Assembly (NCBI GenBank): GCA_016866975.1 | Contig: VGKP01000001.1 | Span: forward strand, 34,013 to 98,012 | Length of the DNA stretch: 64,000 nt | From: Candidatus Pacearchaeota archaeon | GTDB taxonomy: Archaea > Nanobdellota > Nanobdellia > Pacearchaeales > GW2011-AR1 | Direction of reading: 5' to 3' | Shown: positions 12,647 to 47,033 of the stretch, piece after piece | Layout of the letters: each line of letters opens with the position of its first letter | How positions within the stretch are numbered: position 1 is the stretch's first letter | Made by a program: the position numbers and the translations under genes | Notes under the pieces: generated by a model | Told to the model about the DNA's origin: nothing | The model's input: the letters and a program-made list of their open reading frames with translations, nothing else | Databases searched by the model: none

Positions 12647-12783
12647 TGGCCTCGAGGGGATTTGAACCCCCGACACCTGGATTTCCTCCTAAGAGAAACA
12701 ATGTTCCCTTATGGGTAAACTCTCCTTTCAGAGAGTTTCTTAGGTAAAAGTCCAGTACTCTAACCGGGCTGAGCTACGAGGCC
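12647..12783 (-). tRNA. tRNA-Lys (TTT) with an intron of about 62 nt at the canonical 37/38 position
   Basis: Acceptor ggcctcg/cgaggcc, D-arm gctc..gagt, anticodon stem ctgga/tccag, loop cTTTTa interrupted by the intron, T-arm ggggg-ttcaaat-cccct. Confidence 0.65.
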
Positions 12784-18924: not shown

Positions 18925-19180
18925 TCCTTCTTGTTTACCCCAAGATGTTGTGTCTCAGAGCAATTCCGGACACAATACCTTGTAATTTTATTTTTTAACT
19001 GCATTTACTATTTAAATGTTTCTTCAAAAATAAATCTTTCGTCGCTGTTTTAGAAGAAATATTATTTTGTCACTTTGTCATGATTATTTTTGGATTTTCC
19101 CTCGAGACTCCGTCGGAAAATATTTCCCATACCCTGATTGCGATAGGAATATTTAAATTGAGGCAGATATTGATTGTTTC

Positions 19181-19420
19181 ATGAATACAAAGTTCAAAAG
19201 ACATCAATCCGTAGTGCTTATTAGAGATCCAGACCCTGAGTACGTAGAGTATCATAATGAGGATGACGCTGAATTTAAGGAGATACCTATTAAGAAAGGC
19301 ATGAAAGGAAAAGTCAATGTATTGCTCCCTAATGGCAAGTATCATGTAGAAGTATTTGATTCCAAAGGCAATATCCTTGCTTATGTGCCTATGAACGAAG
19401 AAGATCTAGAGGCAGAATAA
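19181..19420 (+). CDS. Hypothetical small protein
   Basis: The 79 aa ORF shows no recognisable motifs. Confidence 0.3.
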   Translation: MNTKFKRHQSVVLIRDPDPEYVEYHNEDDAEFKEIPIKKGMKGKVNVLLPNGKYHVEVFDSKGNILAYVPMNEEDLEAE

Positions 19421-19725
19421 TGGTCCGTTTTGCGACTGGCACTGTGCATAAGGTGCCATCTGACTTGAAAAAGGCCTTATGCGCTGATTCAAGAGCTTTA
19501 GCAGAATGGAATGATATTACATCGCTTGCCCGCAATGAATGGATATGCTGGGTCACTTTTGTGAGGAAAGAAGAGACAAGAAAAGAGCACCTTAATAGAC
19601 TATTAATAGAAATTAAAGAAGGAAAGCGGCGGCCGTGCTGTTGGATAGGCTGCATCCATCGAAAAGACAAAACTATAAGTCCTTCAGTGAGAGGAATACT
19701 AGAAAGAAGAAAAAATAAGTCGTGA
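19420..19725 (+). CDS. YdeI/OmpD-associated (OmdA) family protein
   Basis: The pattern LPxDLxxAL, a W-rich EW motif and a basic RRPCCW tail are typical of this family. Confidence 0.45.
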   Translation: MVRFATGTVHKVPSDLKKALCADSRALAEWNDITSLARNEWICWVTFVRKEETRKEHLNRLLIEIKEGKRRPCCWIGCIHRKDKTISPSVRGILERRKNKS

Positions 19726-23405: not shown

Positions 23406-25414
<2,009 letters not shown>

Positions 25415-27184: not shown

Positions 27185-28372
27185 TTATTTCTTCAGCACT
27201 TCAAGACCTGGAAGCCTGTCACCTGCAAGATAAGCCATTAAAGCCCCGCCTGAAAGACTTATTGAAGAGAACCTATTTGGGATATGATATGTTGTCAAAG
27301 TTGTCGTAAGATGACCTCCACCCAGAAGAGAGTGACATCTCTTCTTAATTGTCTGGGAGCTTATTTCTTTAAGTATATCAACGGTGCCATAGCTAAACTT
27401 TGGATCCTCTGAATAACCTACTGGCCCTTTCATGAAAACTGCCTTTGCGTAAGAGATATGCTCCTTGAAGAGAGCAGAAGTCATATGGCCTATATCCCAT
27501 ATCTTTTCCTCTGATGGTGTATCTGATAAAAGAATTTCCTTTCTTTTCTTATTGCCTATCGCAAAATCTATTGGGAGTATAATCTGTCCAGGGTGCTTGC
27601 TGAACAAGTATCTCAGATTAGGATATAAAATATGAAAACCTTTCTTCTTCATCCATATATTTTCATATCCTAAATCTATGCCTTGTGCTGCTATAAATGC
27701 ATTGCCTAAAACACCTGAAGTCAGAATTTTGTTATCCTTGTTTTTCAAGACTTTGAAGAATGATATATAGTCATCAAGCTTTGTACCTCCAAGGAGATAT
27801 ACTTTCTTCCCGCTCTTGTCCTTGACAAAATAATCAGCAGACTTCAGCTCATTCTCAAAACTCCTGCCTATTGCGCTTGGAAGATACATTGGAGGGATGA
27901 TTATGCTTCCTTGCTCCCTATGAGAGACTGAGAAAGCATCATTTATGAAAAAATCAAAAAGAGAACAAAATCCCTTGAACCTGTTTTTTTTCCCAAGGCT
28001 CGTCTCATCATCTTGAAATCTTGTATTCTCTAGAAGAAGGACTTCTCCAGGAGGCAAATGTGTTATATATTCGGATGCTCTCTCGCCAAACAAGTCATTG
28101 ACAAAATGCACTTTTTTTCCAATATGTTTTGACAGAATTGATGAATGATGTTTCAAAGATATGCAATCAGCTTCGCCCTGCCTGCCTTGATGGGCAATTA
28201 TCACAACTTTCGCTTTTTTATCACATAACTCTGTTATTGTCTTTGAGTGTTCTATAAAGCGGGGAGAATCTAGAGGCTTGCCATTCCTTAGGGCTGAATT
28301 TATATCTATCCTAAGAAGGACTCTTGCATTTGAGAGATGAAAAGAGTCTAATGTTTTTAAGGCCATAGTCAC
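27185..28372 (-). CDS. pgk: Phosphoglycerate kinase
   Basis: Call is based on the 395 aa length, its position next to gap and overall pattern; no PGK-specific motif was identified. Confidence 0.8.
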   Translation of the reverse strand: MTMALKTLDSFHLSNARVLLRIDINSALRNGKPLDSPRFIEHSKTITELCDKKAKVVIIAHQGRQGEADCISLKHHSSILSKHIGKKVHFVNDLFGERASEYITHLPPGEVLLLENTRFQDDETSLGKKNRFKGFCSLFDFFINDAFSVSHREQGSIIIPPMYLPSAIGRSFENELKSADYFVKDKSGKKVYLLGGTKLDDYISFFKVLKNKDNKILTSGVLGNAFIAAQGIDLGYENIWMKKKGFHILYPNLRYLFSKHPGQIILPIDFAIGNKKRKEILLSDTPSEEKIWDIGHMTSALFKEHISYAKAVFMKGPVGYSEDPKFSYGTVDILKEISSQTIKKRCHSLLGGGHLTTTLTTYHIPNRFSSISLSGGALMAYLAGDRLPGLEVLKK

Positions 28373-29388
28373 TTCCTTGACTTTTTAGGGACCTTCTCGC
28401 TTTCCAAGATCATCTGGGCTACATCAATAAGACGATTGGAATATCCCCATTCATTGTCGTACCAACCAGCTATGCTTATAGTATCGTCTATCACTTGAGT
28501 GAAATGTGAGTTGAAGATACATGAGTGAGGATTGCCTATGATATCTGAAGATACAAGGAAATCATCTGAGTACTCAACAATGCCTTTGTAGTCTGTAGAT
28601 GTCTTCCTCTTGAAAACGGCGTTGACATCCTTCGCAGAGACTTTCTTCTCGACTTTTGCAACAATACTTGTGATCGAGCCGTCTATGACTGGCACCCTAA
28701 GTGCGTAGCCTTCTATCTTACCTTTCAATTGAGGCAGGCTCTCAACCACAGATATTGCTGCCCCGGATGTAGTGGGAACAATATTATACGCTGCCGCCCT
28801 GCCTCTTGCAAGGTCGCGCTTGTCATGCCCGTCAACTAGGCGTTGAGTCGAAGTATAAGCGTGGGTTGTGACAAAGAATGCGCTCTTCAGATTGTATGCC
28901 TCGTGGAGTATCTTTATCATTGGAGCAGTACAATTTGTAGTGCAGCTTCCCGCAGATATTATTTTATGCTCTTTCCTGAAATCAGAATTATTGACGCCAG
29001 GTATAAGTGTGAGGTCATGGCCCTTTGCTGGGGCGGAAATAAGGACCTTCCTAGCGCCCGCCTTGAGATGTTTCTCTGCTCCTTCCTTTTCAGTAAAGAA
29101 ACCTGTGCATTCAACCACGAGATCTATGTTCTCTTTCTTCCAAGGCAATTTAAGGGGATCTGTCTCATGGACTGTGAGGAATTTTCTTTTTCCTATGAAA
29201 AGATGTTTTCCATCATGATGAATAGGTTCCTGGATTCCATGATGCACTGAATCATGTTTTAGTGTGTATACCACATAATCTGGGTCACCCATCTCATTTA
29301 TGACAATATTCCAAGGCACATTCTTCTGTACGCAGGTCTGAAGAAAAAGCTTGCCTATTCTTCCTAAGCCGTTAATGGCAACATTCAT
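28369..29388 (-). CDS. gap: Glyceraldehyde-3-phosphate dehydrogenase, type I
   Basis: It carries the INGLGRIGK NAD-binding motif and the SCTTNCTAP catalytic Cys. Confidence 0.85.
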   Translation of the reverse strand: MNVAINGLGRIGKLFLQTCVQKNVPWNIVINEMGDPDYVVYTLKHDSVHHGIQEPIHHDGKHLFIGKRKFLTVHETDPLKLPWKKENIDLVVECTGFFTEKEGAEKHLKAGARKVLISAPAKGHDLTLIPGVNNSDFRKEHKIISAGSCTTNCTAPMIKILHEAYNLKSAFFVTTHAYTSTQRLVDGHDKRDLARGRAAAYNIVPTTSGAAISVVESLPQLKGKIEGYALRVPVIDGSITSIVAKVEKKVSAKDVNAVFKRKTSTDYKGIVEYSDDFLVSSDIIGNPHSCIFNSHFTQVIDDTISIAGWYDNEWGYSNRLIDVAQMILESEKVPKKSRK

Positions 29389-29567: not shown

Positions 29568-30251
29568 TCATTCTCTCTCGTTTGAGGCTAGGATATAAGA
29601 AGCTACACAACCTTTTCCTTTTTTATCACCTGCGTACACTCTGAGGTCAGATGTAACGTTTGGATCATCTGAATCCCTCATCATGACTTTTAGGGGAGAC
29701 CTGATTGCTATTATGCTCCTTCCATCGAATCCTTCAGGGGAAAACTTTTCTGTAAATTCTCCCATGCCCAAGGCTTTTTCACTGTTTGTCGCTCCCCAGA
29801 TGGCGACATATCCTTTTTCTCCTGGAAGATGAGCAGATATACATGAAACGCCATATCCTCCTCTCTGGGAGCTTCTCCAAACCCCCCAAGTGCCAGCTTC
29901 TTTCTGTTCGAGAGAAAAGCCATCGCCTTGATAGCCTGCTGCTGAAGTGATTAGTGCAGCCTCTACATTCCCAGGTGAAGATATGCGGACAATTGTAGAA
30001 CCAACAAGAGCGCGAGTAACATCTTTCACATCGTTGGCGAAAGGATTGCCTTGCACGTTAATTAGATAGTCTCGTGCCTGCCTTTTAAGGCCAGAGGTCA
30101 GTTCATCATGAACAGTAAAATCTCCATCGGCAAGCTTTAATAGAAGAGGATTTTCTTGTATATCCTTTTGCAAGTCTGGGAATATCCCGGTCAGCACCCT
30201 TGTTATAAGGCCTGATGTGATGCCACCCAATTCCTTCTTTAAGCCACTCAT
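29568..30251 (-). CDS. Island gene 5: hypothetical protein
   Basis: The 227 aa ORF overlaps gene 4 by 4 bp. No motif was recognised. Confidence 0.45.
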   Translation of the reverse strand: MSGLKKELGGITSGLITRVLTGIFPDLQKDIQENPLLLKLADGDFTVHDELTSGLKRQARDYLINVQGNPFANDVKDVTRALVGSTIVRISSPGNVEAALITSAAGYQGDGFSLEQKEAGTWGVWRSSQRGGYGVSCISAHLPGEKGYVAIWGATNSEKALGMGEFTEKFSPEGFDGRSIIAIRSPLKVMMRDSDDPNVTSDLRVYAGDKKGKGCVASYILASNERE

Positions 30252-31291
30252 TCTTTTCTCCCCACATTAATGGTGTGGTGAATCCTGCTGTCATTTTGAA
30301 AAGACTCCATACTCTGGAACAATTGACAAGCTATATTTAAAGCTTTCCTTTCTTCCTCTCCTGCGCTGTTATATTTTAAACTTATGAGCTCATAAGCTTG
30401 TCCTGGAGAAATCGCATAGACTGGCAACATTTCATTCAACACAAGGTTTACCAGTTGCTGTCTTAGAACTGCATTTGGATTAAATAAAACTCTGCCTGCA
30501 GAGCGCATATTTGCGAAAGACTCCCAGTCTATGAATCCTGATCCTATAGTAGATGTTTTGACCCTTATTTTTCCAAAAACAGACTTTAGAGAGAGAGCAT
30601 CATTTTGAGACTTTGGAAGCTCTGGCTGGGCTTGAATTCGTTCGGCATAACAGTCTCTTACAGCCTTAAGATCGGGGTCGATAATGACTTCTTTGGATTT
30701 TAATGACCTTCTATGTGACTCTTCAAGATTTTTATACAATTCTGAATCTAGGAGCGGTTCTAGTTCACTTAGAAGGTCTGTGCTTTGCTCAAAACGGAAA
30801 AGCAGACGTTCAAGAAGAGGAGAAAATCTTCCTTGACGATTATCAGTACCTTTCATCATATACTCGAAAAAGTCTAATCCTGGACCGCGTTGCAATTCTA
30901 CAAGATATTCATTAGCTGCCTCCCTTAAGAGAGTACGGTCTAAGATTATTTCGCGTAAACTAGAAGTGTCTGGACATTGAACCAGATTTGAAAGAAAAAG
31001 CCTCCCGACCAAAGGAGAGTTTCTCATAGAGAGCATGCTATAATAATTTATCGGATTGCTGGATTTTGGAATTAGGAAGTTTGGCTTTAACACACTCTCT
31101 TCATTTGCACGTGCCTGATCAAACAATGATGGTATTATATCTTCCCACCTGTCTCCTTTATTTGACCAGTTATAACAAACTCCCCAGAGAGTGAATTCTG
31201 GTCTGTATTTGCAGGATTCGTAATTTGCCAGAATAGTGGAAGCTACTTCCTCACAAGCTCCTCTGATGTCATTTCCCATCGTATCCTCCAA
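30248..31291 (-). CDS. Island gene 4: hypothetical protein
   Basis: The 347 aa ORF overlaps gene 3 by 23 bp. No motif was recognised. Confidence 0.45.
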   Translation of the reverse strand: MEDTMGNDIRGACEEVASTILANYESCKYRPEFTLWGVCYNWSNKGDRWEDIIPSLFDQARANEESVLKPNFLIPKSSNPINYYSMLSMRNSPLVGRLFLSNLVQCPDTSSLREIILDRTLLREAANEYLVELQRGPGLDFFEYMMKGTDNRQGRFSPLLERLLFRFEQSTDLLSELEPLLDSELYKNLEESHRRSLKSKEVIIDPDLKAVRDCYAERIQAQPELPKSQNDALSLKSVFGKIRVKTSTIGSGFIDWESFANMRSAGRVLFNPNAVLRQQLVNLVLNEMLPVYAISPGQAYELISLKYNSAGEEERKALNIACQLFQSMESFQNDSRIHHTINVGRKE

Positions 31292-34200
31292 GGGCTGCTT
31301 TTATCTGAGAAAGAGCTGCAGAAACATCTTTTGGATCTGACTTATTCAATATCCTATCTATCCTGCCATCATAATCTTCTCTCTCTACATCCACATTCGC
31401 AAGATTAAGCCCTGATTCTAGCTTGACGAAATATTCTGCATGTAATGGAACTGATTTTCTTACCTTAGGTTCTGAAACTTCTTCTTGTATGCGATGTTCT
31501 ATCACCTTTGTTTCAGGCTTAAGCCTCAATCCAAGAGGTTCATTTGGCAAATTGACTTGGTGGCGTTGAGCTACTATCACATATGCCTCAACATTCTCTC
31601 CTCTTTCATCATCTCCTTTGCTTATCCTGCCCTGATATGTGCCTGTGAAATAAGGAATGACAGAAAAACCATAGTGCCCCATATCTTTTGAGAATGCGTC
31701 CCTACAAGAGTCGTCTATCTTCTTTGATGTCAGCACTGTTACAAGATATTTTCCATTTCCTAGCACCCTATTTGCCTCCCGCAAGAAACTGTCCCTGCCT
31801 TCCCTATCAAGAAGATCTAAGACCAAAGAAGCTACCATTACATCTTGTGAGGCATTATCTATCCTTACTTCGTTCTGATAATGGCCTTCTGAGTTGAATA
31901 CAGATTGAGGTGAACTGTTTAAAGGAACAAGCTTATTGAGATTGCATATATCTCCCAAATAACATGTGCTTTCAGGTATCTTTGATTCTGAGCAAGCATC
32001 TATCCCATGATGCAATTGGAATGGATTCAAATCTATTGCAGTAGTTGGCCTTTTTATTGTCTGAGCGACTGCCAGCGGCCCAGCACCTGCATCAAGTATT
32101 CTTTCGAGAGAGGTACAATATCTTTTTTCTATTCCTAGAAGAATATCCTTGGTCAGCCTTGCGATGTTTCCTGCATAGGTCTCATCCCATTTTCTATTAT
32201 ATATTGATGAAATGAAGAACGCATTATTCGCATGAGAAAGGGCTGCGCTGTACGTCATGCCTCCTGCACCTTCCATGGAATTAAAATGGGCTGCCAAGAC
32301 ATCTCTCACTCTCAGATTTTTAAGAGTATCGATGACTGATTTTTGGTCGTCTCCCTCTATCCATGACAGCATTTCTGAATCACTGACCTCTCCAGGATTT
32401 TGATGAATCTCCTCGATAAGCTTCTCCTTTCTTATACGCTTTCTTTCAAGATAACTCTCAACTGTCTGCAAGATAGGGGAACGAACATTTAGTATGTGGA
32501 CCTGTCTCCTCTGGCCAGATCTTACTGTCCGGCTTATCAATTGCTCGTGCTTGCAAGGCACAGTAGTCTCCTCAAAATTTATTATATAAGTTGCTTCCTT
32601 TGCTTCCATGCCTTCCCTAAGGGCCCTTGTTGTAACCAGCACAGAGACATCTGGATCTGTAGCAAACTCATGCAATACTTTCTCCCTTTCTGACATCCCA
32701 TATATCTCATAAGGAAGTATCTTTAGATGTTGCCTTGCCTGTGGCGAGAGATCGGAAAGATATGTCTCATCTCCCCTCATAAAGCCATCTTCCACAAGTA
32801 TGCATTTCTGCCATTCTTTTATCTTCACCTCTTTGACTTCTGCAGAAACTGTCTGGTCTATACGCCTTGCCCCGAGATCACTAAGCATAGACTCTAACTC
32901 AGTCGTCACATCTCTCTGATATTCGCATACCACCAAACACTTCTCACCTTTTTCTTTTATCTCCTTGACAAGGCCTCTAGTGAATTCCATACGCGATTTT
33001 TTGACTCTGCGTACTTTGTCTTCAAGACCTGGATTTGAATTGAAGAAAGATTGCATCCTCTCCTGCAAAGGATCATCGCCATCACATAAATGACCAAGAT
33101 TGTCTGGAAGAAGCTTGCTTGGATTTGCTATAAGATATCTTAGAAGAAGGTACTTTTCTCTACCGTCAAATACTTCTGCTTCAAGAAGAGCACTGAAAAG
33201 TTCTGTCTCTGCATCAGTTATATCATATGTGCGAGTCTCTGAGATTGGTTTCTTGACACTAGGATCGACCTCTTCAAGAGTGCGGATAGGAAAAACAGAC
33301 TTTAAGTCTATGAATGCCCTGACTTTCTTGGCAGTATCCTTGCCTTCTATAAATTTCTTGAAATCATCCGGGTCTTTTACAAATTCAGTCACATATGCTG
33401 CCCAAGCCAAGCCTTCAGGAGTATTTCCTATACCTGTACCTGACATCAATATGGCCCAGCGTGCAGGCCTGGCAATAGAAGCTATCGCCCTAGACCTTTT
33501 GGCGTCGGTACCAACAAGATTATGAAACTCATCCACTATAGCGTAATAAGGCATGTTCTCTGGAAAGACTTTCTGTTTCAGGGCGTCAAACACTGCCAAA
33601 GACTCTGACTTCGACTCTTCTCTAAGTATTATCTCGTGAAGCTCCGGTAAGGGAGTGTTTCTTTTCTTTAATTTTTCAACGCGCGTACTACCTATAAGAG
33701 GTCTAAGAAATTCATAGGCTTTGGAAGGTGTAGGATATTCGCAAAATACTCTGACCATTTCCCCCATTTCATCCTGAGGTTCAGAACCATTCCCCAGAGT
33801 TGCCCCCCTGAAAGTCATGTCATAACCTACAATGACAAAGCTTGTACCTGGAAGTGAAGCATGCCTTATCGCCTGTTCCCTGTTCTCTCTAGTTATTATC
33901 GCTATTTCGGGATTTACAAATAGCCTCTCAATCTCCCTGAGCCATATTGGCACTATATATCCTGGACAAGTTATGAATGTTTTTATGCTCTCTTGTCCTG
34001 CAGAAATCTCTGGGAGCATTCTATTGATGGGGACGATAGCACTTAGTGCGCTTATAGTCTTCCTTGTGCCTGGCTTGCTGAGCTCAATGACTTTTCCTCT
34101 CTGTGCCACTGTTGCTCCAACAAGCTTCTGCTCAAGAGAAGGCAGAGGATGCCTCTCAAATGAAAAATATCCTGCAGGCGCTACTTTATTTATAAGCGCC

Positions 34201-34382
34201 TTGAATCCTCCTGGATAGTCTTTGGAACTATCTAAAAGCTTTTTCCAATAAGGGACTTGTTTTAGAAAATCAGTATCGAACGGCCTTGGCAAAAACCCTA
34301 AACGATCTACAACGGCCCTTAACCTGCGCTCGAGGTCTGAAGAAGATGCTAAGTCACTATTTTGTTGGATGCTGCCGCTCAT
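31269..34382 (-). CDS. Island gene 3: SNF2-family helicase fused to a C-terminal class I SAM-dependent methyltransferase domain
   Basis: Helicase motifs are SKPGTRKT (I), VDEFHN (II), MSGTGIGNTPEGL (III, SNF2-like) and LVTTRALREGME (VI). The MTase motif I is ILDAGAGPL, followed by AIDLN and DVMVASLVLDLL. No (D/N/S)PP(Y/F/W) DNA-MTase motif was found. Confidence 0.6.
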   Translation of the reverse strand: MSGSIQQNSDLASSSDLERRLRAVVDRLGFLPRPFDTDFLKQVPYWKKLLDSSKDYPGGFKALINKVAPAGYFSFERHPLPSLEQKLVGATVAQRGKVIELSKPGTRKTISALSAIVPINRMLPEISAGQESIKTFITCPGYIVPIWLREIERLFVNPEIAIITRENREQAIRHASLPGTSFVIVGYDMTFRGATLGNGSEPQDEMGEMVRVFCEYPTPSKAYEFLRPLIGSTRVEKLKKRNTPLPELHEIILREESKSESLAVFDALKQKVFPENMPYYAIVDEFHNLVGTDAKRSRAIASIARPARWAILMSGTGIGNTPEGLAWAAYVTEFVKDPDDFKKFIEGKDTAKKVRAFIDLKSVFPIRTLEEVDPSVKKPISETRTYDITDAETELFSALLEAEVFDGREKYLLLRYLIANPSKLLPDNLGHLCDGDDPLQERMQSFFNSNPGLEDKVRRVKKSRMEFTRGLVKEIKEKGEKCLVVCEYQRDVTTELESMLSDLGARRIDQTVSAEVKEVKIKEWQKCILVEDGFMRGDETYLSDLSPQARQHLKILPYEIYGMSEREKVLHEFATDPDVSVLVTTRALREGMEAKEATYIINFEETTVPCKHEQLISRTVRSGQRRQVHILNVRSPILQTVESYLERKRIRKEKLIEEIHQNPGEVSDSEMLSWIEGDDQKSVIDTLKNLRVRDVLAAHFNSMEGAGGMTYSAALSHANNAFFISSIYNRKWDETYAGNIARLTKDILLGIEKRYCTSLERILDAGAGPLAVAQTIKRPTTAIDLNPFQLHHGIDACSESKIPESTCYLGDICNLNKLVPLNSSPQSVFNSEGHYQNEVRIDNASQDVMVASLVLDLLDREGRDSFLREANRVLGNGKYLVTVLTSKKIDDSCRDAFSKDMGHYGFSVIPYFTGTYQGRISKGDDERGENVEAYVIVAQRHQVNLPNEPLGLRLKPETKVIEHRIQEEVSEPKVRKSVPLHAEYFVKLESGLNLANVDVEREDYDGRIDRILNKSDPKDVSAALSQIKAALGGYDGK

Positions 34383-35988
34383 TGACTACAGCCCCCTGAA
34401 ATCTTGACCTTTGCGAGCCAATATAGTAAGTAAGGAGGCTCTCCATCATTGTGCCTCTCTTTCCATCCGGAGCAGCCAATGGCTCGTCTCCTTTAAGTGT
34501 GGTGAAGACAGATTGCCTTACTCTCTGAGGTATAGAATCATAAATTTTTATGCCTAGCTGATAGTCATCTAATGCAGACTTGAGATCAATTTCTTTGATA
34601 GATCTTTCCTCGACCAATTTCTCGAATGCAGGCCATAACACTGCATCATATTTATTGAATCTCCTCATCAGATGCTTTATAGGAAATCCATATTGCGTTG
34701 ACAATCCTGCTAGCTCTCTATCACTCTCCCTGAATTCGTTTTTTTCTCCTGAAGAGTTTTCTATCTCTCCTCTCTTTGGAAGATAGCCTTTAAGCCATAA
34801 TCCCTCAAAAATGAAATCAAGCTCGTTTGAAGAATATTGAAGACTTTGATTAATCATGTTTGCTGTCAGCGCCATCATACCTTCATAGACATGATTAGTT
34901 GTTGATTCACTCGTCTTTCCTCTGCTCTTATTGAAGAAAGGCGCTACTCTCTTCATTCTCTCGTCCTTGTCTATAACTTCGGCAGCTTTTGCTACTCTTA
35001 TCCACCAACCCAGGCTCGTCCTTATCCTTGTCTCTAAAGCAGTATCATTACGAACAATTCTCAGTGTGCTAAAACGAAGAGCGTCAAACATTTCTTCAAC
35101 TTCCACTCCTTCAACCCTATGTCTTGGATTTGAGAAGAATTCATAGGCCGGCCTTGCATTTGAGCTCTGCGCAAGATATTCAAAGGCATCTTTATAGTTA
35201 GCACCAAGATGAATAGACTGCATAAATTCGTTTATGCAGGGCGTAACCATCTCATTCGCGAGAAGAGAATTTATTCGATTCCTGTGTATCTTAAATATCT
35301 TGCCTCTATATGCCTTCATGAAGTCTATATTGCTCTGGAGGCTGAATGTGAATCCTGAATTTGCTGCACTATTGAGGACCTTCTCTGGAACACCTAAAGA
35401 TCTCAATTCATCAAAAGATTCTAGAGCCTTGCCTTTTTGTCCGCTTATCTGACTAAATGCCTCTGCTATAAGATACCCTTTATGGCCCTTAAGATAACTG
35501 ACAAGGGCTGGATCGACTATTACTTGATAGGAGGGCTTAGGAACACTCTGGATAGGCGGTTTATTAGGGCCTGGTTTATACTGCTTTGTATTCAAAGCTG
35601 GGACTCTGGGCAATGCGCATCCAGTAAATACGTTCTCTAGAAGATGTTCAAGACTACGTGCTCCAACCAGTCCTTCTCTTTCCAGGATATCTACCTGTAA
35701 ATCCCTGATGTTCTGCCCTAGCTGCCCATTGTGGAAAGTAGTCATGAATTTGACCCTTGGATTGCCAAAAGGAAGCTCTATGCAGGCTATGTAAACCTGA
35801 CTATTGGTTGATTGATAAGATTCTGTCTCTTGGGCGCACACCTTCTGAATATCTGAAAGGATGCGCTCTAGTTCGTCAGTAGTTATCTGGCCTTTTGTAG
35901 ATATCTTGCCTGATATAATTGCCTCAAAATACTTGTCATGACCTAATCTTGCTACTATCTCCTCCCTGGAGCCTATAACCTTACTCAT
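34357..35988 (-). CDS. Island gene 2: hypothetical protein
   Basis: The 543 aa ORF overlaps gene 3 by 26 bp. No motif was recognised. Confidence 0.45.
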   Translation of the reverse strand: MSKVIGSREEIVARLGHDKYFEAIISGKISTKGQITTDELERILSDIQKVCAQETESYQSTNSQVYIACIELPFGNPRVKFMTTFHNGQLGQNIRDLQVDILEREGLVGARSLEHLLENVFTGCALPRVPALNTKQYKPGPNKPPIQSVPKPSYQVIVDPALVSYLKGHKGYLIAEAFSQISGQKGKALESFDELRSLGVPEKVLNSAANSGFTFSLQSNIDFMKAYRGKIFKIHRNRINSLLANEMVTPCINEFMQSIHLGANYKDAFEYLAQSSNARPAYEFFSNPRHRVEGVEVEEMFDALRFSTLRIVRNDTALETRIRTSLGWWIRVAKAAEVIDKDERMKRVAPFFNKSRGKTSESTTNHVYEGMMALTANMINQSLQYSSNELDFIFEGLWLKGYLPKRGEIENSSGEKNEFRESDRELAGLSTQYGFPIKHLMRRFNKYDAVLWPAFEKLVEERSIKEIDLKSALDDYQLGIKIYDSIPQRVRQSVFTTLKGDEPLAAPDGKRGTMMESLLTYYIGSQRSRFQGAVVNERQHPTK

Positions 35989-37621
35989 ATATATCTCCTA
36001 GAGAATAATTTCTCCAATTTACACCAAGCTTGCTCAGAACCTTTCTAGAGCGTGCTTCTTTGACCCTTTGTGTGAACCCTGAGATTAGACCAGTTGGATT
36101 AGAAGGCATCTCGAACTCAAGAGTGAAGATAGGGCTTCCCAAGCAGGAAGTTGTCCTACTACCTGAAATTTTCTCTCCTTGAAGAGATTCCTTGATTGAA
36201 GTTGACAAGTCATGATTAACTGCTCTTGTAAAATTAGTCTCTGCTGTCTCTTGAGTGCATGGAACGATATACGATAAAGATACCGTGTTTCCTGTACTTG
36301 ATGCAAGAGTGACTATTGGTAGTGTGTATGGAAGTGTTGAAGAATTATAAGTTGCATGTGCAAGATTGTAATTTTCCCTGTTTGAATCCAAAACTCTTAA
36401 GAATTGATGAGCTATTGGTATTCCCTGCTCCCAGCCATTTGACTGCGTAAGAAAATCCTGTATCGCCTTTTCAATATATTCTTTTTCTTTCAGAGAGAGT
36501 GAGGCACCCATACTGATAGCATTGTGCAAAGATAGAGCTCCAAGATAAGGCAATCTTAATTTTCCATATTCATTTGAATCTTTGAATTCTCTTGTTCTAA
36601 GTAAGGCAGCAGATTTGAGATCATCCCAAGATGAATCGAGAGGAAGGCCAATAGAGGATGCTAATGCTACCAATTCTGGAGTCAGTACGAAAGACCTCTC
36701 GTCGGTTTCAAGAGCATTGCGGACGAGATCTTCTATATTCTGAGGAAAAGCCACCTCATAAGCTTTTAAACATTGATCATAAGAAGCTCCTGCAATCCTA
36801 CGCGCAGTCATAACGCCAAGCTCTTCCAAAGAAAATTCATCAGTCTTAGGGGCTGCGGCTAGACGAGAATGAAGGCCAACATTCTCCTCCCTGAGACGGT
36901 CAAGTGCCTCATTTGCTTCTAAAAGTGCGACCTCTGACTGCTCTGCCTGTCCACTCAAATTCTGGTATTCAGACTCAAGAGTGCTATAACTCTGGCTTAA
37001 CTTGGAAGCAGTTTCCTCAGCTTTATTGGCGCGTGCATTTGCCTCTTCTAACAAAGTATTGCTTGAGCTAGTAAGTGTCTGAAGCTGATGGTTGAGTTTA
37101 CCATTCTGTTCTTCAAGAGCCTGATTGGCTCCCTGAAGAGTTTCGTATTCCTTAATTTTAGCCACTAAAGCACGATTAGTAGTGCCAAGTTGTACCTTAG
37201 TATTTTCCAATCCTCTTTCAACATTAGTTAGCTTTCCTTCCAAATCTCTCTGAAGATTATTAAATTCTCTGCGCGAAACTAATTTCTTGCCAGAGGGTAA
37301 GATTTCTATAGTATATTTCTTAAAGCACCCAGAACCATGTCGGGCTGTAGTAGATGAAAGAAGAGATTCTACTGCTTGAGTAAGAATATTCTGTCCCAAA
37401 TTATCTACTGAGATAACCTCTTTACATAGTCCTAAATACACTTGAATTTTAGATTTATCTAATATTGGGATCACGCTTATTGGCAAACCATGTTTTCTGG
37501 ACATTGTAGACGCGACATTTTTAAAATGATTATGAAAAGAGCTCCAGCAGTCTTGGTGAAACATTTCATAAACAATACGCATTACATATGGCTCTTCAGA
37601 TTCTTGTTCTTGATTTGACAT
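35981..37621 (-). CDS. Island gene 1: hypothetical protein with a long central coiled-coil
   Basis: The 546 aa protein has heptad-rich residues at about 115-260 (LEGKLTNVERGLENTKVQL...ALDRLREEN). Confidence 0.45.
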   Translation of the reverse strand: MSNQEQESEEPYVMRIVYEMFHQDCWSSFHNHFKNVASTMSRKHGLPISVIPILDKSKIQVYLGLCKEVISVDNLGQNILTQAVESLLSSTTARHGSGCFKKYTIEILPSGKKLVSRREFNNLQRDLEGKLTNVERGLENTKVQLGTTNRALVAKIKEYETLQGANQALEEQNGKLNHQLQTLTSSSNTLLEEANARANKAEETASKLSQSYSTLESEYQNLSGQAEQSEVALLEANEALDRLREENVGLHSRLAAAPKTDEFSLEELGVMTARRIAGASYDQCLKAYEVAFPQNIEDLVRNALETDERSFVLTPELVALASSIGLPLDSSWDDLKSAALLRTREFKDSNEYGKLRLPYLGALSLHNAISMGASLSLKEKEYIEKAIQDFLTQSNGWEQGIPIAHQFLRVLDSNRENYNLAHATYNSSTLPYTLPIVTLASSTGNTVSLSYIVPCTQETAETNFTRAVNHDLSTSIKESLQGEKISGSRTTSCLGSPIFTLEFEMPSNPTGLISGFTQRVKEARSRKVLSKLGVNWRNYSLGDIYE

Positions 37622-37640
37622 GTAAATGCCTTCATTTTCT

Positions 37641-37650
37641 TATTTTTAAA
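37641..37650 (-). promoter_or_regulatory. Candidate TATA box for the five-gene island operon, implying a leaderless or short-leader transcript
   Basis: Reads tttaaaaata on the coding strand 20-29 nt upstream of the gene 1 ATG. Confidence 0.35.
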
Positions 37651-37735: not shown

Positions 37736-38644
37736 CTACGCTTTCCCCACACTTCCGAAAAGTCTAAGATGCTCTTCTACACTTCTTTGAGTGGCTTTCT
37801 GTGCATAAGAAAGAGCATCACGAGGGTTGATTGATTCTGGATGCTTTTGCGTGTATTCTCTTAGGGCTGTGGAGAATGCAAGGCGGAGGTCTGTATCTAC
37901 ATTTATTTTGCAGATCCCTAAATTAATTGCTTTCTTTATTTGTGACTTTGGTATGCCTTGAGCTTTGCCGACCTGCATACCCAATGAACGTGCTTTGGTA
38001 AGCGCATGTTTGGGAACGAGAGAAGCACCATGAAGAACTAGGGGAATGGAAACACGTTTACGAATTTCTTTGAGAATATCGAGCCGGAGGCGGTCGCCTT
38101 TGACTTTGTATGCTCCATGACTCGTACCAATGGCGACTGCAAGAGAATCTATGCCTGTCTGCCTTACAAATTTTACGGCTTGCTTAGGGTCTGTACACCA
38201 ACTAGTGCCCTCTAAATCATCTTCTTTTCCCCCTATAATGCCAAGTTCAGATTCTACAGTGATATTTCTCTTTTTAGCTGCTTTTACAATTTCTTTAGTG
38301 AGCTTAATATTTTCTTCAAATGGATGATGTGAAGCATCAATCATTACGCTAGTGTATCCAATACTTATTGCTTTTTTTATCAATTTCATATCCCTTCCGT
38401 GATCGACATGAATGGCGATGGGTACTTTTGATTCTCTTGCCGCAATACGCATCATATCAATTAGTATCTCAAGACCTGCATAGGCTATGGCGGACTCACT
38501 TGTCTGTATGATTATTGGGGATTGAAGATTTTCAGCAGCGTCTATTGCTGCGTGAAGAGTTTCTATATTGTAGATGTTGAAAGCCCCCACTGCATACTTT
38601 CCTTTCTGCGCTTTATTCAGAATTGTTTTTGCTGTTATGATCAT
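37736..38644 (-). CDS. fba: Class II fructose/tagatose-bisphosphate aldolase
   Basis: The IHVDHG zinc-ligand motif lies in a 302 aa protein. Confidence 0.8.
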   Translation of the reverse strand: MIITAKTILNKAQKGKYAVGAFNIYNIETLHAAIDAAENLQSPIIIQTSESAIAYAGLEILIDMMRIAARESKVPIAIHVDHGRDMKLIKKAISIGYTSVMIDASHHPFEENIKLTKEIVKAAKKRNITVESELGIIGGKEDDLEGTSWCTDPKQAVKFVRQTGIDSLAVAIGTSHGAYKVKGDRLRLDILKEIRKRVSIPLVLHGASLVPKHALTKARSLGMQVGKAQGIPKSQIKKAINLGICKINVDTDLRLAFSTALREYTQKHPESINPRDALSYAQKATQRSVEEHLRLFGSVGKA

Positions 38645-39552
38645 TCTAATTTTGTAAGGAGCCCTGTGTGGGCACCGATTGATGAGAGAACTGATTGAGA
38701 CTCTTTTACACCATAGGATAGCGCAGTAGGCAGATCTTTGCCAATCATCCTTGCGTAAACAAAGCCCGCTGCGAAAGCATCTCCCGCCCCAGTGGCATTT
38801 ATGGGATGGAGATTCTTTATTTTTTGAGTGTGATGTTGTTGGCCCATATAGGCATGCACTGGGTTCGCACCATCAGTGATGACAAGTATGCCTGGAAGAT
38901 ATTTTAATATAGCCATAGCTGCTTTGTTTAAGTCTCTTTTCTTTGAAATAAGCTCTGCTTCATCCCGATTAATTATGAGGATGCTGATTTTTTGAAGGAA
39001 AGATGAAAGTTTATGGGTGCCTAGTGAAGCAGCATATGAACTTAGATTTGCTGCAACAGGGACATGATGCTCGCGTGCCACTTTTGCAACGCGCTGCGCA
39101 GTCTCGAAGCTTTTTCCATGGAGTGTAGATATGTATATCCAATGAGTTTTGAATTCTGGGAGATCGTTAATTTCAAGCTGGTCATTGATCCCTTTATGGA
39201 CCAAAATTGTGCGGTCCTCTTTTCCAGTCAAAATGATAGAGAATCCTGTAGGTCCATTCTTAATCTTACCTAAAAATGTCACGTTTTCTTTTTTGAGGTC
39301 ATTGAGAATTGTATGCGCGTGTTCATCGTTGCCCAGGCAGGCAATTGATGCCGTCTTCAATCCCAGCCTTGAAAAAGCTATCGCAGTGTTTAGTGCACCT
39401 CCTCCTGTACAAAAAAAAAGATTTTCCACAAGTACTTTTTCACCTTCATGGAAGCAGATATCCAGATGGTCGTGATGTTTCTTCTCTAGTTTTTTTCCTA
39501 AAACAAACAGGTCCCTGTTCATCCCACCTATAGTGATTATATCGTAGCTCAT
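38641..39552 (-). CDS. PfkB-family carbohydrate kinase
   Basis: The GAGDAF motif (INATGAGDAFAAGF) is present. Confidence 0.75.
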   Translation of the reverse strand: MSYDIITIGGMNRDLFVLGKKLEKKHHDHLDICFHEGEKVLVENLFFCTGGGALNTAIAFSRLGLKTASIACLGNDEHAHTILNDLKKENVTFLGKIKNGPTGFSIILTGKEDRTILVHKGINDQLEINDLPEFKTHWIYISTLHGKSFETAQRVAKVAREHHVPVAANLSSYAASLGTHKLSSFLQKISILIINRDEAELISKKRDLNKAAMAILKYLPGILVITDGANPVHAYMGQQHHTQKIKNLHPINATGAGDAFAAGFVYARMIGKDLPTALSYGVKESQSVLSSIGAHTGLLTKLE

Positions 39553-40511
39553 TTGATCAAATTGATGGCTTTATTTATTAGGAAAGATTGGATATTTTCT
39601 ATGGTAGTGAAAAGAATCCGTTGGACCGATTCCTTACTATAAAAAGCTGAATGTGGGGTGAAAAAAACGTCTTGGTGTGAAAGAAGATATTTTTGGTCTG
39701 GAGAGAGTTTGTTATGTTCCAATATATTATCCTCATTCTCCATGACATCTAATCCTGCTCCTGAAATCTTATTTGACCTGAGAGCTTTTACCAGCGCCCT
39801 TGTATCTATAACTGGCCCTCTAGAAGTATTAATAATGATTGCGCCTTTTTTTACGTACTTGAAAGTCTTTTCATTAAGCAAATGTCTTGTCTGGTCTGTA
39901 AGAAGAACGTGTAATGTGATTATGTCTGATTTTTTGAGTAGTTCTGGCAAGTCTACATAAGTGTAATTCATTGTCTTCGCCGCCTCTTCATTCTTGAAAA
40001 TATCATATGCAAGTACGTTCATTCCAAATCCTTTAGCAATATGTATTGAAGACTGCCCTATCTTTCCTGTCCCAATCACTCCAATCGTCTTTCTTTTAAG
40101 ATCAAAACAATTCATTTCTGCAATTGGCTTCTTATTCTCCAAGACTTCTTTCCTTGTCTGAGAGACTCTTCTTGATAATTCCAATATGAGCGCAAATGCA
40201 TGCTCTGCCACAGTATTCTCGCCATAAGAAGGGACATTGCATACAACTATGCCTCTTTTCCTGCATTCTTCAAGGCTTATATGGTCGAACCCGGTTGAAC
40301 GTGTTGTAATAAGTTTAAGATTTGGGAGCTGATCAAGAATATCTTTATTGATTTTTGAGCATATGTAAACAGAGAGAATCTCGGTATCCTTTACTTTCCT
40401 TACGTTCTTTACTGTCAGAATATCATCTGAGAAGAATAGCTTGTGCGACTTGAATGTCTTTTTAAGCTCTTCTTTTTCCCATGGATGGGTCTCGAAAAAT
40501 GATATCTGCAT
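39549..40511 (-). CDS. D-isomer-specific 2-hydroxyacid dehydrogenase
   Basis: The NAD-binding motif GVIGTGKIGQ is present. Catalytic R/E/H positions follow the family pattern. Confidence 0.75.
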   Translation of the reverse strand: MQISFFETHPWEKEELKKTFKSHKLFFSDDILTVKNVRKVKDTEILSVYICSKINKDILDQLPNLKLITTRSTGFDHISLEECRKRGIVVCNVPSYGENTVAEHAFALILELSRRVSQTRKEVLENKKPIAEMNCFDLKRKTIGVIGTGKIGQSSIHIAKGFGMNVLAYDIFKNEEAAKTMNYTYVDLPELLKKSDIITLHVLLTDQTRHLLNEKTFKYVKKGAIIINTSRGPVIDTRALVKALRSNKISGAGLDVMENEDNILEHNKLSPDQKYLLSHQDVFFTPHSAFYSKESVQRILFTTIENIQSFLINKAINLIK

Positions 40512-41015: not shown

Positions 41016-42608
41016 ATGAGCGAGAAGCAGCCTGTATATGTCCTACCTGAACATGTTTCTAGAACTCTCGGCAAAGATGCACAACGCAACAATATTCTTG
41101 CTGCAAAGATCATTGCAGATATTGTGAAGACCACTTTGGGACCAAAGGGAATGGATAAGATGCTTGTTGATGCAGCAGGAGATGTGATTGTCACAAACGA
41201 TGGAGTAACTATATTGGAAGAGATGGAAATAGACCATCCTGCTGCAAAAATGCTTGTTGAGATAGCCAAGACACAGGAACATGAAGTAGGAGACGGAACT
41301 ACTACTGCTGCTTTACTCGCAGGCAAATTGCTGGAGCATGCTGAAAAACTTCTAGATAGAAAGATACATCCAACTGTGATTGTAAAAGGTTACAGGAAGG
41401 CTGCAGAAAAATCACATCAACTTCTGCAAGAGCTTGCTTTGCCTGTGAGGGATGCAATCATTTTAAGGCAGATTGCTATGACTGCCATGACTGGAAAGGG
41501 TGCTGAAGGACATAAAGAAAAGCTCGCAGACCTTATTGTGAAAGCTGCTGAACAAGTAGCGGCCGGAAGAGAGATATCTTTGAATGATATAAAGGTGCAG
41601 AAGTTGAAAGGACAGGACGTTCAGGAAAGCGAGATAGTGCAAGGACTTGTTTTGGAGAGGGAGAGATCAAATAGTGCGATGCCCTCAATTGTCAAAGATG
41701 CGAAGGTTCTCCTTGTTGACTTTTCTCTTGAAATTAAGAGTCCTGAAAGCGAGGCTAAGATCGCTGTGTCTACCCCTGAGCAGCTAGATAGTTTCCTTGC
41801 ATCTGAGGAAAGATATCTTAAGATGATGACTGACAAGATACTCTCGACCGGGGCAAACGCAGTATTCTGCCAAAAAGGAATAGATGATGTTGCACAATAC
41901 TATCTTGCGCAGGCAGGTGTATTTGCATGCCGAAGAGTGTCAAAATCAGACATGGAGTTTCTTTCCAGGGCTACTGGAGCAAAAATATTATCAAACTTGC
42001 ATGATGTGCATGCCTCTGCCCTTGGAGATGCTAAAGAAGTTGAGGAAAAGACGAATGGTGATGATCATTTTATATATTTTAGAGGGTGCCAGAATCAAAG
42101 AGTAGCTACATTGATATTAAGAGGCCAGACTGTGCATGTTGTCGATGAGATAGAGAGGGCAGTAAAGGATGGCCTTGGAGATGTCATCTCTACTGTAAAG
42201 AGCGGAAAAATCGTGCCAGGAGGAGGAGCGATAGAGATTGAGTTGGCCAGAAGATTAAGAGTCTATGCAAAAAGCATGGGTGGAAGAGAACAGCTGGCAA
42301 TAGAAGAGTTTGCGCACGCACTAGAGAGCATACCTGAATCCCTTGCTGAGAATGCTGGCCTTGACCCTCTTGATATTTTGACCGAGTTAAGAAAGAGACA
42401 TGAAGCTGGAATGCAAGGGCATGGGTTGAATCTTTTTACTGATACTATTGAAGATACTCTAAACGCGGGAATTGTAGAGCCCCTAAAAGTCAAGACACAG
42501 GCAATAAGCTCTGCATCTGAGGTCGCAATGATGATATTGCGTATTGATGATGTCCTTGTGAGCAAGAGAGGCGCGCAACAGATGCCAAGATATGAAGGCA
42601 TGGATTAA
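41016..42608 (+). CDS. ths: Thermosome subunit (group II chaperonin)
   Basis: The 530 aa protein has group II chaperonin motifs ([21 protein letters not shown]). Confidence 0.9.
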
Positions 42609-44876: not shown

Positions 44877-44947
44877 TGCGCCCGCCGGGAATCGAACCCG
44901 AATTTACTGATTGGCAACCAGTCGTTCTACCACTAAACTACGAGCGC
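44877..44947 (-). tRNA. tRNA-Gly (GCC)
   Basis: Acceptor gcgctcg/cgggcgc, anticodon loop ttGCCaa, T-arm tcggg-ttcgatt-cccgg. Confidence 0.8.
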
Positions 44948-45820: not shown

Positions 45821-45891
45821 GGCCCATTAGGCTAATGGTAGACCGGGTCGTTTACACCGACCATGCCGAAGTTCGATTCTTCGATGGGCCA
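45821..45891 (+). tRNA. tRNA-Val (TAC)
   Basis: Acceptor ggcccat/atgggcc, anticodon stem ggtcg/cgacc, loop ttTACac, T-arm cgaag-ttcgatt-cttcg. Confidence 0.7.
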
Positions 45892-46170: not shown

Positions 46171-46241
46171 GGCCCTATAGTCTAGTGGCAGAACGCCTCT
46201 TTCACGTGGAGGACGCCGGGGTTCGATTCCCTGTGGGGCCA
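46171..46241 (+). tRNA. tRNA-Val (CAC)
   Basis: Acceptor ggcccta/tggggcc, anticodon stem cctct/ggagg, loop ttCACgt, T-arm cgggg-ttcgatt-ccctg. Confidence 0.7.
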
Positions 46242-46265: not shown

Positions 46266-47033
46266 TTAATCTAATTCGTAAGCTCCGTTCCCTTTGAAGC
46301 GTAGAAATCCTTTATCTCTGAGTATTTGAAGTTGCTGCCGTATTTTGTCTTTAATGTGGAGATTATTAGGGTGGATTCTCGCGAGTTCTCCTTCAAATCT
46401 GTAAATTTCATCAAGCTGAAAAGTTTTCTTGCTAAGTGAATGGATGACATTGAGAATATCAATTGTCCACCCTCTTTCCGAAAGAGGAGTTTTCTTCATA
46501 AAATCAACTTTTCTCCACTTTTCATTTACTTCTTTCTTTTCTAATATAGCACCATCTTTAATAATCGAGATTCTGCCTTCTTTGGGTATTTTTTCCATTA
46601 AGAGGTTGCATCCAACCCATCCTCTTCTTCGCGCATTCTCAGAGAGAGGTCTTCTCTTTTCTATAATTTCCTCAACAAAAAAGAAAGAAGGCACGATAAG
46701 CAGATTTTTGACACAATAGTCCTTAGTGTATTGGAGAAAGAGGAAATTGGGTCGCGTTCCTTCTTTAATTGACTGAATCATTGTAGAAAAGGCTCCATCT
46801 ACAATTTTCTTAGCAAGAGTGTTATTTTGGCTTTTCAGTTGGAAAGTCTCTTGACAAATTTCACAAATAAAATCTGCGACGGGAGTTCCAGCTTTCAATT
46901 TTAGAATGTGTTCGCTTAAACAAGATACACAAAAAAGATTTTTCTCGGCCCAATCTTCGCTCAGAACACGTATTCGTTGCGTGTTGCTTTTGTACTTATC
47001 AAAAACACCTTGATTATACAATTGTAATTCCAT
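46266..47033 (-). CDS. DpnI/DRP-like restriction endonuclease candidate (methyl-directed type IIM) with a C-terminal winged helix
   Basis: The 255 aa protein resembles DpnI as recalled from memory. It has an N-terminal CxxC..CxxC region, a central catalytic region and a C-terminal KIRQQLQILRDKGFL winged-helix-like segment. The assignment is not database-verified. Confidence 0.45.
   Translation of the reverse strand: MELQLYNQGVFDKYKSNTQRIRVLSEDWAEKNLFCVSCLSEHILKLKAGTPVADFICEICQETFQLKSQNNTLAKKIVDGAFSTMIQSIKEGTRPNFLFLQYTKDYCVKNLLIVPSFFFVEEIIEKRRPLSENARRRGWVGCNLLMEKIPKEGRISIIKDGAILEKKEVNEKWRKVDFMKKTPLSERGWTIDILNVIHSLSKKTFQLDEIYRFEGELARIHPNNLHIKDKIRQQLQILRDKGFLRFKGNGAYELD

Follow-up and report, generated by a model that had tools for sequence, protein, structure and literature searches.

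A block of five overlapping genes on the minus strand, named g1 to g5 in the direction of transcription, lies between two groups of glycolytic genes in a 64,000-nucleotide stretch of DNA from a Candidatus Pacearchaeota archaeon (GenBank assembly GCA_016866975.1, contig VGKP01000001.1, positions 34,013 to 98,012 of the forward strand; hereafter the window). We show that the five genes constitute a single conserved and co-inherited module, whose recognizable catalytic capacities are limited to an SNF2 ATPase and S-adenosylmethionine (SAM)-dependent methylation. The best explanation of the sequences and structure models is that the block encodes a multi-subunit, cytoplasmic methylation complex that would track along DNA, and the module is proposed to be accessory and confined to DPANN archaea. 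We rate the block as belonging with the helicase-methyltransferase multi-gene modules, with several parts that are unprecedented.

Five genes inherited as one module

A word-indexed search of 5.8e9 proteins revealed nine non-identical relatives of the central protein g3 (31-71% identity), and all nine are encoded in the same colinear block, contigs that end early showing as much of it as fits. In these nine relatives, the coiled-coil protein g1 has a length of 454-781 amino acids (aa), followed by proteins of 508-605, 1023-1152, 339-370 and 209-265 aa, and the genes of the relatives' loci mostly overlap. A scan of metagenomes added the loci L097, L098, L099 and L100/L102, besides the fragments L096 and L101, which carry g3 alone. 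Ten loci possess the complete set of five genes (the window, L001, L004, L007, L008, L009, L010, L012, L099 and L100), with g3 identities of 26-71% across them, and in five others (L003, L011, L093, L097 and L098) every gene that the contig ends allow is present. Nine of the ten complete loci are colinear. In the remaining one (L100, 4368-14307) the genes are rearranged into two divergent operons, g5-g1-g2 versus g3-g4, and are still linked; L102 is arranged alike. The fact that the same five genes are kept through this rearrangement is strong evidence for a functional linkage. Whether the five genes travel together across relatives had been raised as a check in the original prediction, and with ten complete loci and a linkage that survives rearrangement they clearly do.

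The subunits diverge at different rates. Identities to orthologues amount to 12-38% for g1, the fastest-evolving subunit, to 23-50% for g4 and to 31-71% for g3, and the C-terminal domain of g1 is still detectable even in L099 and L100, two distant loci. The flanks of the block are unlike from locus to locus and consist of housekeeping genes throughout, coding for RFC, ribosomal proteins, PPDK, POR, proteasome components, CPSF, RNA polymerase subunits, AMP phosphorylase or threonyl-tRNA synthetase (ThrRS). In L099, for example, the block is located on a 1.2-Mb contig between an archaeal-type ThrRS gene and a gene for a Ski2-like helicase. As a separate observation, the g3 orthologue of fragment L096 (69% identical) contains an in-frame TAG at a conserved Glu codon (1433-1435; GDDPLQ*RMQ versus GDDPLQERMQ), which could indicate a pseudogene, a sequencing error or recoding.

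In the window, the five minus-strand open reading frames (ORFs) were found with the lengths and at the positions that the original prediction had given (Table 1), and the announced overlaps of 4-26 bp amount to 8, 26, 23 and 4 nt for successive gene pairs. We consider them real genes because the same five proteins recur colinearly in unrelated contigs and because an ORF of 1037 aa is far beyond what chance would produce in DNA of 39% GC. The predicted TATA box, TTTAAAAATA, is present as a consensus match; with 19 nt between its 3' end and the ATG of g1, it could plausibly serve as an archaeal TATA box whose mRNA is leaderless or has a short leader. An overlapping operon with a single upstream TATA-like box counts for the reading that the five proteins form one complex.

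In order to delimit the family, a g3 profile was searched exhaustively over 1.84e9 cluster representatives (clusters at 50% identity). Only about 25-30 clusters were matched over the full length or from the N-terminal domain onwards, whereas 109 clusters in total were obtained at E < 1e-30 and about 11,000, which are generic SNF2 matches, at E < 1e-3. A wider set of prokaryotic proteins in which SNF2 and Methyltransf_11 domains are fused (P0079-P0200) shows the same domain order as g3 (SNF2-rel_dom, Helicase_C, Methyltransf_11/25). These proteins, mostly of 770-1300 aa, match the g3 profile at positions of about 557-990 and are devoid of the N-terminal domain specific to g3. Two loci of such fusions that were examined, L094 and L095, have unrelated neighbours, and only P0079 (locus L093) keeps genes similar to g4 and g5. 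Judging from these sequence relationships, the five-gene system is a rare sub-branch of a wider, poorly known and apparently undescribed fusion family.

Predicted properties of the five proteins

The g3 protein of the window is identical to the hypothetical protein FJZ18_00430. Its ATPase core matches the Pfam families SNF2-rel_dom (25.8 bits; cut-off 24.9) and Helicase_C (44.6 bits; cut-off 23.5), both of which are also matched in ten of ten g3 orthologues. The motifs PGTRKT (I), DEFHN (II), SGTG (III) and QLISRTVRSGQ (VI) were identified, and the corresponding patterns PGT[RQ]K[TS], DE[FYI]HN, SGTG and Q...R..R.[GN]Q are kept in all ten. When the g3 profile was compared to sequences of the PDB, ISWI, SsoRad54, SWR1 and INO80 were obtained at E-values of 1e-12 to 1e-8, and CHD1 and CSB/Rad26 were also among the matches. 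By these sequence criteria g3 is an SNF2-family ATPase with its motifs intact. Enzymes of this family translocate on double-stranded DNA. Archaeal and eukaryotic SNF2 remodellers (SsoRad54-like 1Z63, ISWI, INO80 and SWR1) are the top structure matches, but the similarity covers the conserved lobes only, and g3 has an N-terminal domain and inserts that they do not share, besides its C-terminal methyltransferase.

A class I SAM methyltransferase is found within the C-terminal 350 residues of g3. Whereas the window protein alone matches just Methyltransf_8 (E = 0.046), g3 orthologues match Methyltransf_11 (9/10, best E = 1.3e-7), Methyltransf_25 (8/10) and Methyltransf_8 (4/10), so that the original description of the central gene as an SNF2 helicase plus a SAM methyltransferase is borne out by the Pfam SNF2 families and by the methyltransferase matches in nine of ten orthologues. 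The window protein carries DAGAGP as motif I and IDLN as post-I motif; D[AL][GA].G[PS] is found in eight of ten orthologues, with the variants EAGSGP (P0005) and SLASGP (P0010), and the alignment shows no variation at the Asp and Asn of the post-I motif. Among solved structures, the closest chains (E-values of 3e-6 to 5e-4) belong to generic SAM methyltransferases, arsenite methyltransferase and RRP8. A regular-expression search for the (D/N/S)PP(Y/F/W/H) motif gave no hit in any of the ten g3 orthologues, and neither g3 nor its orthologues matched N6_Mtase, MethyltransfD12-type or other DNA methyltransferase families of Pfam. By its family matches and motifs, the domain belongs to the class I methyltransferases (Methyltransf_11/25/8 type) and is not a DNA amino-methyltransferase.

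The eukaryotic DNMT5 also combines an SNF2 ATPase and a methyltransferase in one polypeptide, the latter being of the C5-cytosine type and located N-terminal to the ATPase. We know of no sequence relationship between DNMT5 and g3 beyond the SNF2 core. By analogy, such a fusion suggests ATP-coupled methylation on DNA as a model for the action of g3.

The smallest subunit, g5, for which the AlphaFold2 model (12 orthologues) had a predicted local distance difference test (pLDDT) score of 88, consists of an N-terminal helical hairpin followed by a domain that is modelled with the fold of the AAG/MPG glycosylases. Sequence similarity to these enzymes is faint: the Pfam family PF02245 was detected below threshold in four g5 orthologues, always at profile positions 1-60 and in constant register, the best orthologue reaching 20.9 bits (gathering threshold 27) and the window protein giving no match. 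Also, the g5 profile had no significant match among PDB sequences, and a search with a single g5 orthologue likewise returned nothing useful there. The original prediction had found no placeable motif in any of the four non-central genes, which holds for g2 and g4, neither of which matches any family library, and does not hold for g5 in view of its AAG/MPG fold.

Residues of g5 were provisionally mapped by hhalign of its profile against human AAG, to which it is 18% identical, together with the predicted structure and the columns of the orthologue alignment. The position of the catalytic Glu125 of AAG (in IVETEAY) is occupied by Ala (seven) or Gly (two) in the nine g5 orthologues aligned (ITSAAGY), an Arg replaces the intercalating Tyr162, and the loop containing His136 is shortened, whereas aromatic residues are kept at the positions of Y127 and Y159. 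Invariant columns of g5 comprise the start Met and otherwise Gly only, and no invariant acidic column is found in the AAG-like domain. Compared to human AAG/MPG (PDB 1EWN, which we take to be the E125Q form), g5 differs further by its additional N-terminal helical hairpin and in that its gene shares an operon with that of an SNF2-methyltransferase. AAG in which Glu125 is mutated (E125Q) binds flipped lesions without excising them. Because Glu125 is replaced in g5 and in view of this behaviour of the E125Q form, we read g5 as a putative base-flipping or binding module and not as a functional glycosylase, although catalysis by another residue is possible.

The AAG fold raises the alternative that the block serves in scanning and repair of DNA alkylation damage, with the SNF2 motor scanning DNA and g5 detecting alkylated or deaminated purines and handing them to repair. 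AAG is an alkylpurine glycosylase, and the SNF2 proteins CSB/Rad26, which are among the PDB matches of g3, act in repair. However, the catalytic Glu is absent from all g5 orthologues aligned and the His136 loop is shortened, the fused methyltransferase has no obvious part in alkylation repair, and the block is not linked to any gene for an AP endonuclease or lyase. Also, it would be unusual for base-excision repair to employ five subunits of its own, of which three are unique, and to be distributed so patchily, and we consider this alternative improbable. Still less probable is a role in the modification of RNA or ribonucleoproteins, for instance methylation of rRNA or tRNA aided by a superfamily 2 ATPase, with g5 binding RNA via its FMT_C/AAG-type fold. 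The rRNA m1A methyltransferase RRP8 is indeed among the relatives of the methyltransferase, but the motifs of the ATPase (DExH, SGTG, QxxxRxxRxGQ) place it in the SNF2 type, whose members are double-stranded DNA translocases, and a rare and patchy distribution is unlike that of RNA-modification housekeeping.

The three other subunits fall outside known families. As originally predicted, one protein has a long coiled coil, namely g1, in which a variable N-terminus and a coiled coil of variable length (aa ~110-255) are followed by a C-terminal domain (about 285 aa) that is conserved. The coiled coil gave weak SMC/Rad50/JetC-type matches at aa 118-337, mostly 120-255, and a crude heptad signal, whereas profile searches with the C-terminal domain retrieved no family and no PDB sequence. 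In g2 (AlphaFold2 pLDDT 81), a small N-terminal alpha/beta domain is connected by a basic, low-confidence linker (aa ~122-153) to a large all-helical domain; no PDB structure resembles the model, no match was found in Pfam, PADLOC, NCBIfam or PHROGs, and the profile had no significant match among PDB sequences. According to the alignments, g4 is conserved in every locus. In L093, the neighbour of the distant SNF2-methyltransferase resembles g4 (hhalign probability 95.8%, E = 7e-9), and no match in Pfam, PADLOC, NCBIfam, PHROGs or PDB sequences and no relatives outside the system were detected for g4. When the orthologues were scanned against Pfam as well, g2 and g4 again remained without a match. 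Thus g2, g4 and the C-terminal domain of g1 define new protein families. The possibility that g1, g2 and g4 are paralogues of one another was rejected after comparison by hhalign. Transmembrane segments were found in none of the five proteins.

Comparison with described systems and possible functions

Searches of PADLOC, Pfam, NCBIfam, PHROGs, phage and plasmid sequences and IMG/VR assigned the block to no described system, and the original statement that its composition matches none of the known systems agrees with the finding that no PADLOC system fits. In the literature on systems combining SNF2, methyltransferase and AAG-like proteins or on defence in DPANN archaea, no description of this gene set was found. 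That the block might be a divergent member of a described defence system such as DISARM, BREX, Hma, Zorya or MADS is suggested by weak PADLOC matches of g3 to HmaA (4e-8), BrxH (1.4e-7), DrmD (2.6e-7), ZorD (5e-6) and mad2 (4e-3). However, these matches span just about 70-110 residues in the C-terminal lobe of the helicase, g2, g4 and g5 match nothing in PADLOC, g1 gives coiled-coil noise only, the methyltransferase is of another class, and equivalents of PglZ, BrxC, PglX, DrmA, DrmB, DrmC, HmaC, ZorA or ZorB are missing. With matches limited to the helicase lobe and signature genes lacking, identity with any of these systems was rejected, and even a divergent membership seems to us highly improbable.

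DISARM (DrmA/B/C with the SNF2 protein DrmD and the methyltransferases DrmMI/MII) is likewise a multi-gene operon in which accessory proteins accompany an SNF2 helicase and a methyltransferase. However, the DrmD match is confined to aa 560-662 of g3, and DrmA, DrmB (DUF1998) and the PLD nuclease DrmC have no counterpart in the block. The methyltransferases of DISARM are of the N6-adenine or C5-cytosine type, whereas that of the block is of the Methyltransf_11 type and fused to the helicase, and the block differs also by its AAG-like subunit and three unique proteins. The logic of helicase plus methylase is shared with Hma, a PADLOC candidate system of the SNF2 helicase HmaA, the methylase HmaB and the ATPase HmaC. 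Although HmaA is the top PADLOC match of g3, only 70 residues (aa 564-633) are covered, the block has neither a match to HmaB nor an HmaC-type ATPase, and its other genes are unmatched. With respect to BREX, the PglZ phosphatase, the BrxC ATPase and the PglX N6-methyltransferase are missing and the BrxH-type match is restricted to the C-terminal helicase lobe; with respect to Zorya, only weak ZorD matches on the helicase lobe were obtained, and the block does not encode a ZorA/ZorB membrane motor.

In the DNA-tracking complex that we favour, the SNF2 motor would translocate on double-stranded DNA and deliver or position the fused methyltransferase, while g5 would flip and hold a purine without excising it, this purine being what the methyltransferase acts on or produces, or else a modified, unusual or foreign base. 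The coiled coil of g1 might dimerise or scaffold the complex, and g2 and g4 might be structural or specificity subunits. As to the biological role, we tentatively place first, with a confidence that falls somewhat short of even, an accessory genome surveillance of the immunity type, in which foreign DNA would be discriminated or disabled via base modification and not by a canonical nuclease. This role is ranked first because the module is rare and varies in location, because g1 and g4 evolve fast, and because helicase and methyltransferase are combined in the manner known from DISARM, BREX and Hma.

Genes of other possible conflict systems were encountered in the vicinity of the block. In the window, a DpnI-like methyl-directed restriction endonuclease (PF06044, 1.8e-67, plus DpnI_C) is encoded at 46266-47033 (-), 8.6 kb from the block, and adjoins genes for tRNA-Val (46171-46241), tRNA-Val (45821-45891) and tRNA-Gly (44877-44947), with which it may form a small defence islet. 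In L001, the closest relative, an overlapping pair of SLOG/LSDAT_prok and phosphoribosyltransferase genes and an NTP_transf_2 gene close by (together at 16081-17666 and 19010-19570) are located 1-5 kb downstream of the block. SLOG, phosphoribosyltransferase and NTP_transf_2 genes are types often present in conflict systems. The DpnI-like gene and these genes of L001 were counted for the immunity-type role.

Several results weigh against immunity or, more generally, against a DNA-tracking methylation complex. Library scans of all subunits, and structures in the cases of g2 and g5, revealed no effector domain, be it a nuclease, a protease, an NADase or another type, although g4 or the C-terminal domain of g1 might conceal such a fold. 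The family of the g3 methyltransferase gives, as judged by sequence, no pointer to DNA as its substrate, and the restriction of the PADLOC matches to one helicase lobe counts here as well. Relatives of g3 or g5 were found in none of the IMG/VR viral contigs, phage genomes and plasmids searched; plasmid matches of a distant fusion protein concerned the generic helicase core only. The flanks are housekeeping genes and not defence islands, there is no GC or compositional anomaly around the block, and neither integrase nor transposase nor other mobile-element genes surround it. A check for flanking att sites or target-site duplications, which had been envisaged together with the defence interpretation, gave a negative result, direct repeats at the flanks being chance-sized matches only. 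The original defence-type interpretation thus stands insofar as the block is one module, rare, found in varied neighbourhoods and not part of a described system, whereas effector, att site, integrase, compositional anomaly and DNA-methyltransferase family all fail to appear.

Some of the same results would suit a host chromatin or epigenetic machine that regulates packaging or expression in some DPANN archaea and in which an SNF2 remodeller would be equipped with the methyltransferase as writer, whose substrate would be either host DNA or a protein of the chromatin, and with g5 as reader. No effector domain was detected, the block always lies amid housekeeping genes (ThrRS, RFC, proteasome, ribosomal proteins), and its GC content (0.41-0.43) is the same as that of neighbouring genes. 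Furthermore, among solved structures the ATPase is closest to the remodellers ISWI, SWR1, INO80, CHD1 and SsoRad54, and the methyltransferase resembles types acting on proteins, small molecules or RNA, including RRP8/nucleomethylin and Methyltransf_8. Genes for SET-domain proteins (lysine methyltransferases) adjoin the block in L011 (5168-5647) and the distant SNF2-methyltransferase gene in L095 (1860-2516), which possibly reflects a link to chromatin and possibly a coincidence; a Fic gene is located near the SET-domain gene of L095. However, the family is very rare and patchy and occupies no fixed genomic position, g1 and g4 change rapidly when compared to g3, and the similarity to remodellers is confined to generic helicase lobes. 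We regard a chromatin function as less probable than immunity but as a serious alternative.

A reading that spans both roles is a motor-coupled base-modification system of a new kind. In it, the SNF2 motor and a non-canonical methyltransferase (Methyltransf_11/RRP8-like) would write an unusual purine methylation, a dead AAG module would read or hold the flipped base, and three unprecedented folds would take part, the outcome being either a nuclease-free immunity that marks or poisons foreign DNA or the first archaeal writer-reader-remodeller epigenetic complex. In this specific form we consider it unlikely.

Small DPANN genomes keep this 8-kb, five-protein machine under purifying selection, and hence it must pay for itself. 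If its role is in immunity, the block would represent a helicase-methyltransferase system without a recognizable nuclease and, within the database and literature searches made, the first case of an AAG-type fold serving as a non-catalytic base reader. In the case of a chromatin function, it would be a rare archaeal SNF2 remodeller with built-in writer and reader and would bear on the origins of eukaryote-like chromatin. New parts include the Methyltransf_11-type fusion, the degenerate AAG-fold subunit, g2, g4 and the C-terminal domain of g1, and with five proteins predicted to be soluble the system is an expressible target.

Genomic surroundings of the block in the window

Coordinates of the block, its domains and the adjacent genes are given in Table 1. 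Pfam matches support the glycolytic genes that had been proposed on both sides of the block, gap-pgk on one side and fba/pfkB/2-hydroxyacid dehydrogenase on the other.

Table 1. Features of the five-gene block and of its flanks in the window
Feature	Position	Strand	Remarks
g1	35981-37621	-	546 aa, ATG start at 37621
g2	34357-35988	-	543 aa
g3	31269-34382	-	1037 aa
g3, SNF2 ATPase core, aa ~95-640	32463-34100	-	Pfam and motifs
g3, predicted methyltransferase with conserved N-terminal extension, aa ~690-945	31548-32315	-	
g4	30248-31291	-	347 aa, TTG start
g5	29568-30251	-	227 aa
g5, helical hairpin, aa 1-67	N-terminal part of g5	-	
g5, AAG-like domain, aa ~70-223	29583-30044	-	
Candidate TATA box TTTAAAAATA	37641-37650	-	consensus match only, AT-rich spacer
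pgk	27185-28372	-	Pfam; downstream of block
gap	28369-29388	-	Pfam; downstream of block
TATA-like box of gap itself	29437-29428	-	
Class II fba	37736-38644	-	Pfam; upstream of block
pfkB	38641-39552	-	Pfam; upstream of block
2-hydroxyacid dehydrogenase	39549-40511	-	Pfam; upstream of block

The claim that the block breaks an otherwise coherent glycolytic synteny was supported in part. In a contig of a Woesearchaeota metagenome-assembled genome (L013, 5336-9444), gap, pgk, pfkB and fba are contiguous on one strand and no homologue of g1-g5 is present on this contig, but the gene order differs from that in the window, and L013 is a distant point of comparison, the nearest fba among GTDB representatives being 51% identical. 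This best species-representative match of the window fba is from Woesearchaeota and is the sole archaeal one, all other matches being bacterial (Bacillota, Planctomycetota and others) with identities of 40-50%. Such a pattern fits bacterial-type glycolytic genes that would have been acquired by DPANN archaea.

Two Cpn60/TCP-1 (thermosome) paralogues flank the region at 23406-25013 (-) and 41016-42608 (+) and differ strongly in conservation (E = 3.7e-77 versus 1.2e-175). Farther away, a class II ribonucleotide reductase gene (14265-18230, -) is split by an intein that contains a homing-endonuclease domain of the LAGLIDADG type, and a tRNA gene of 137 nt (12647-12783, -), whose implied intron of about 66 nt is in keeping with archaeal DNA, was missed by ARAGORN and detected by Rfam.

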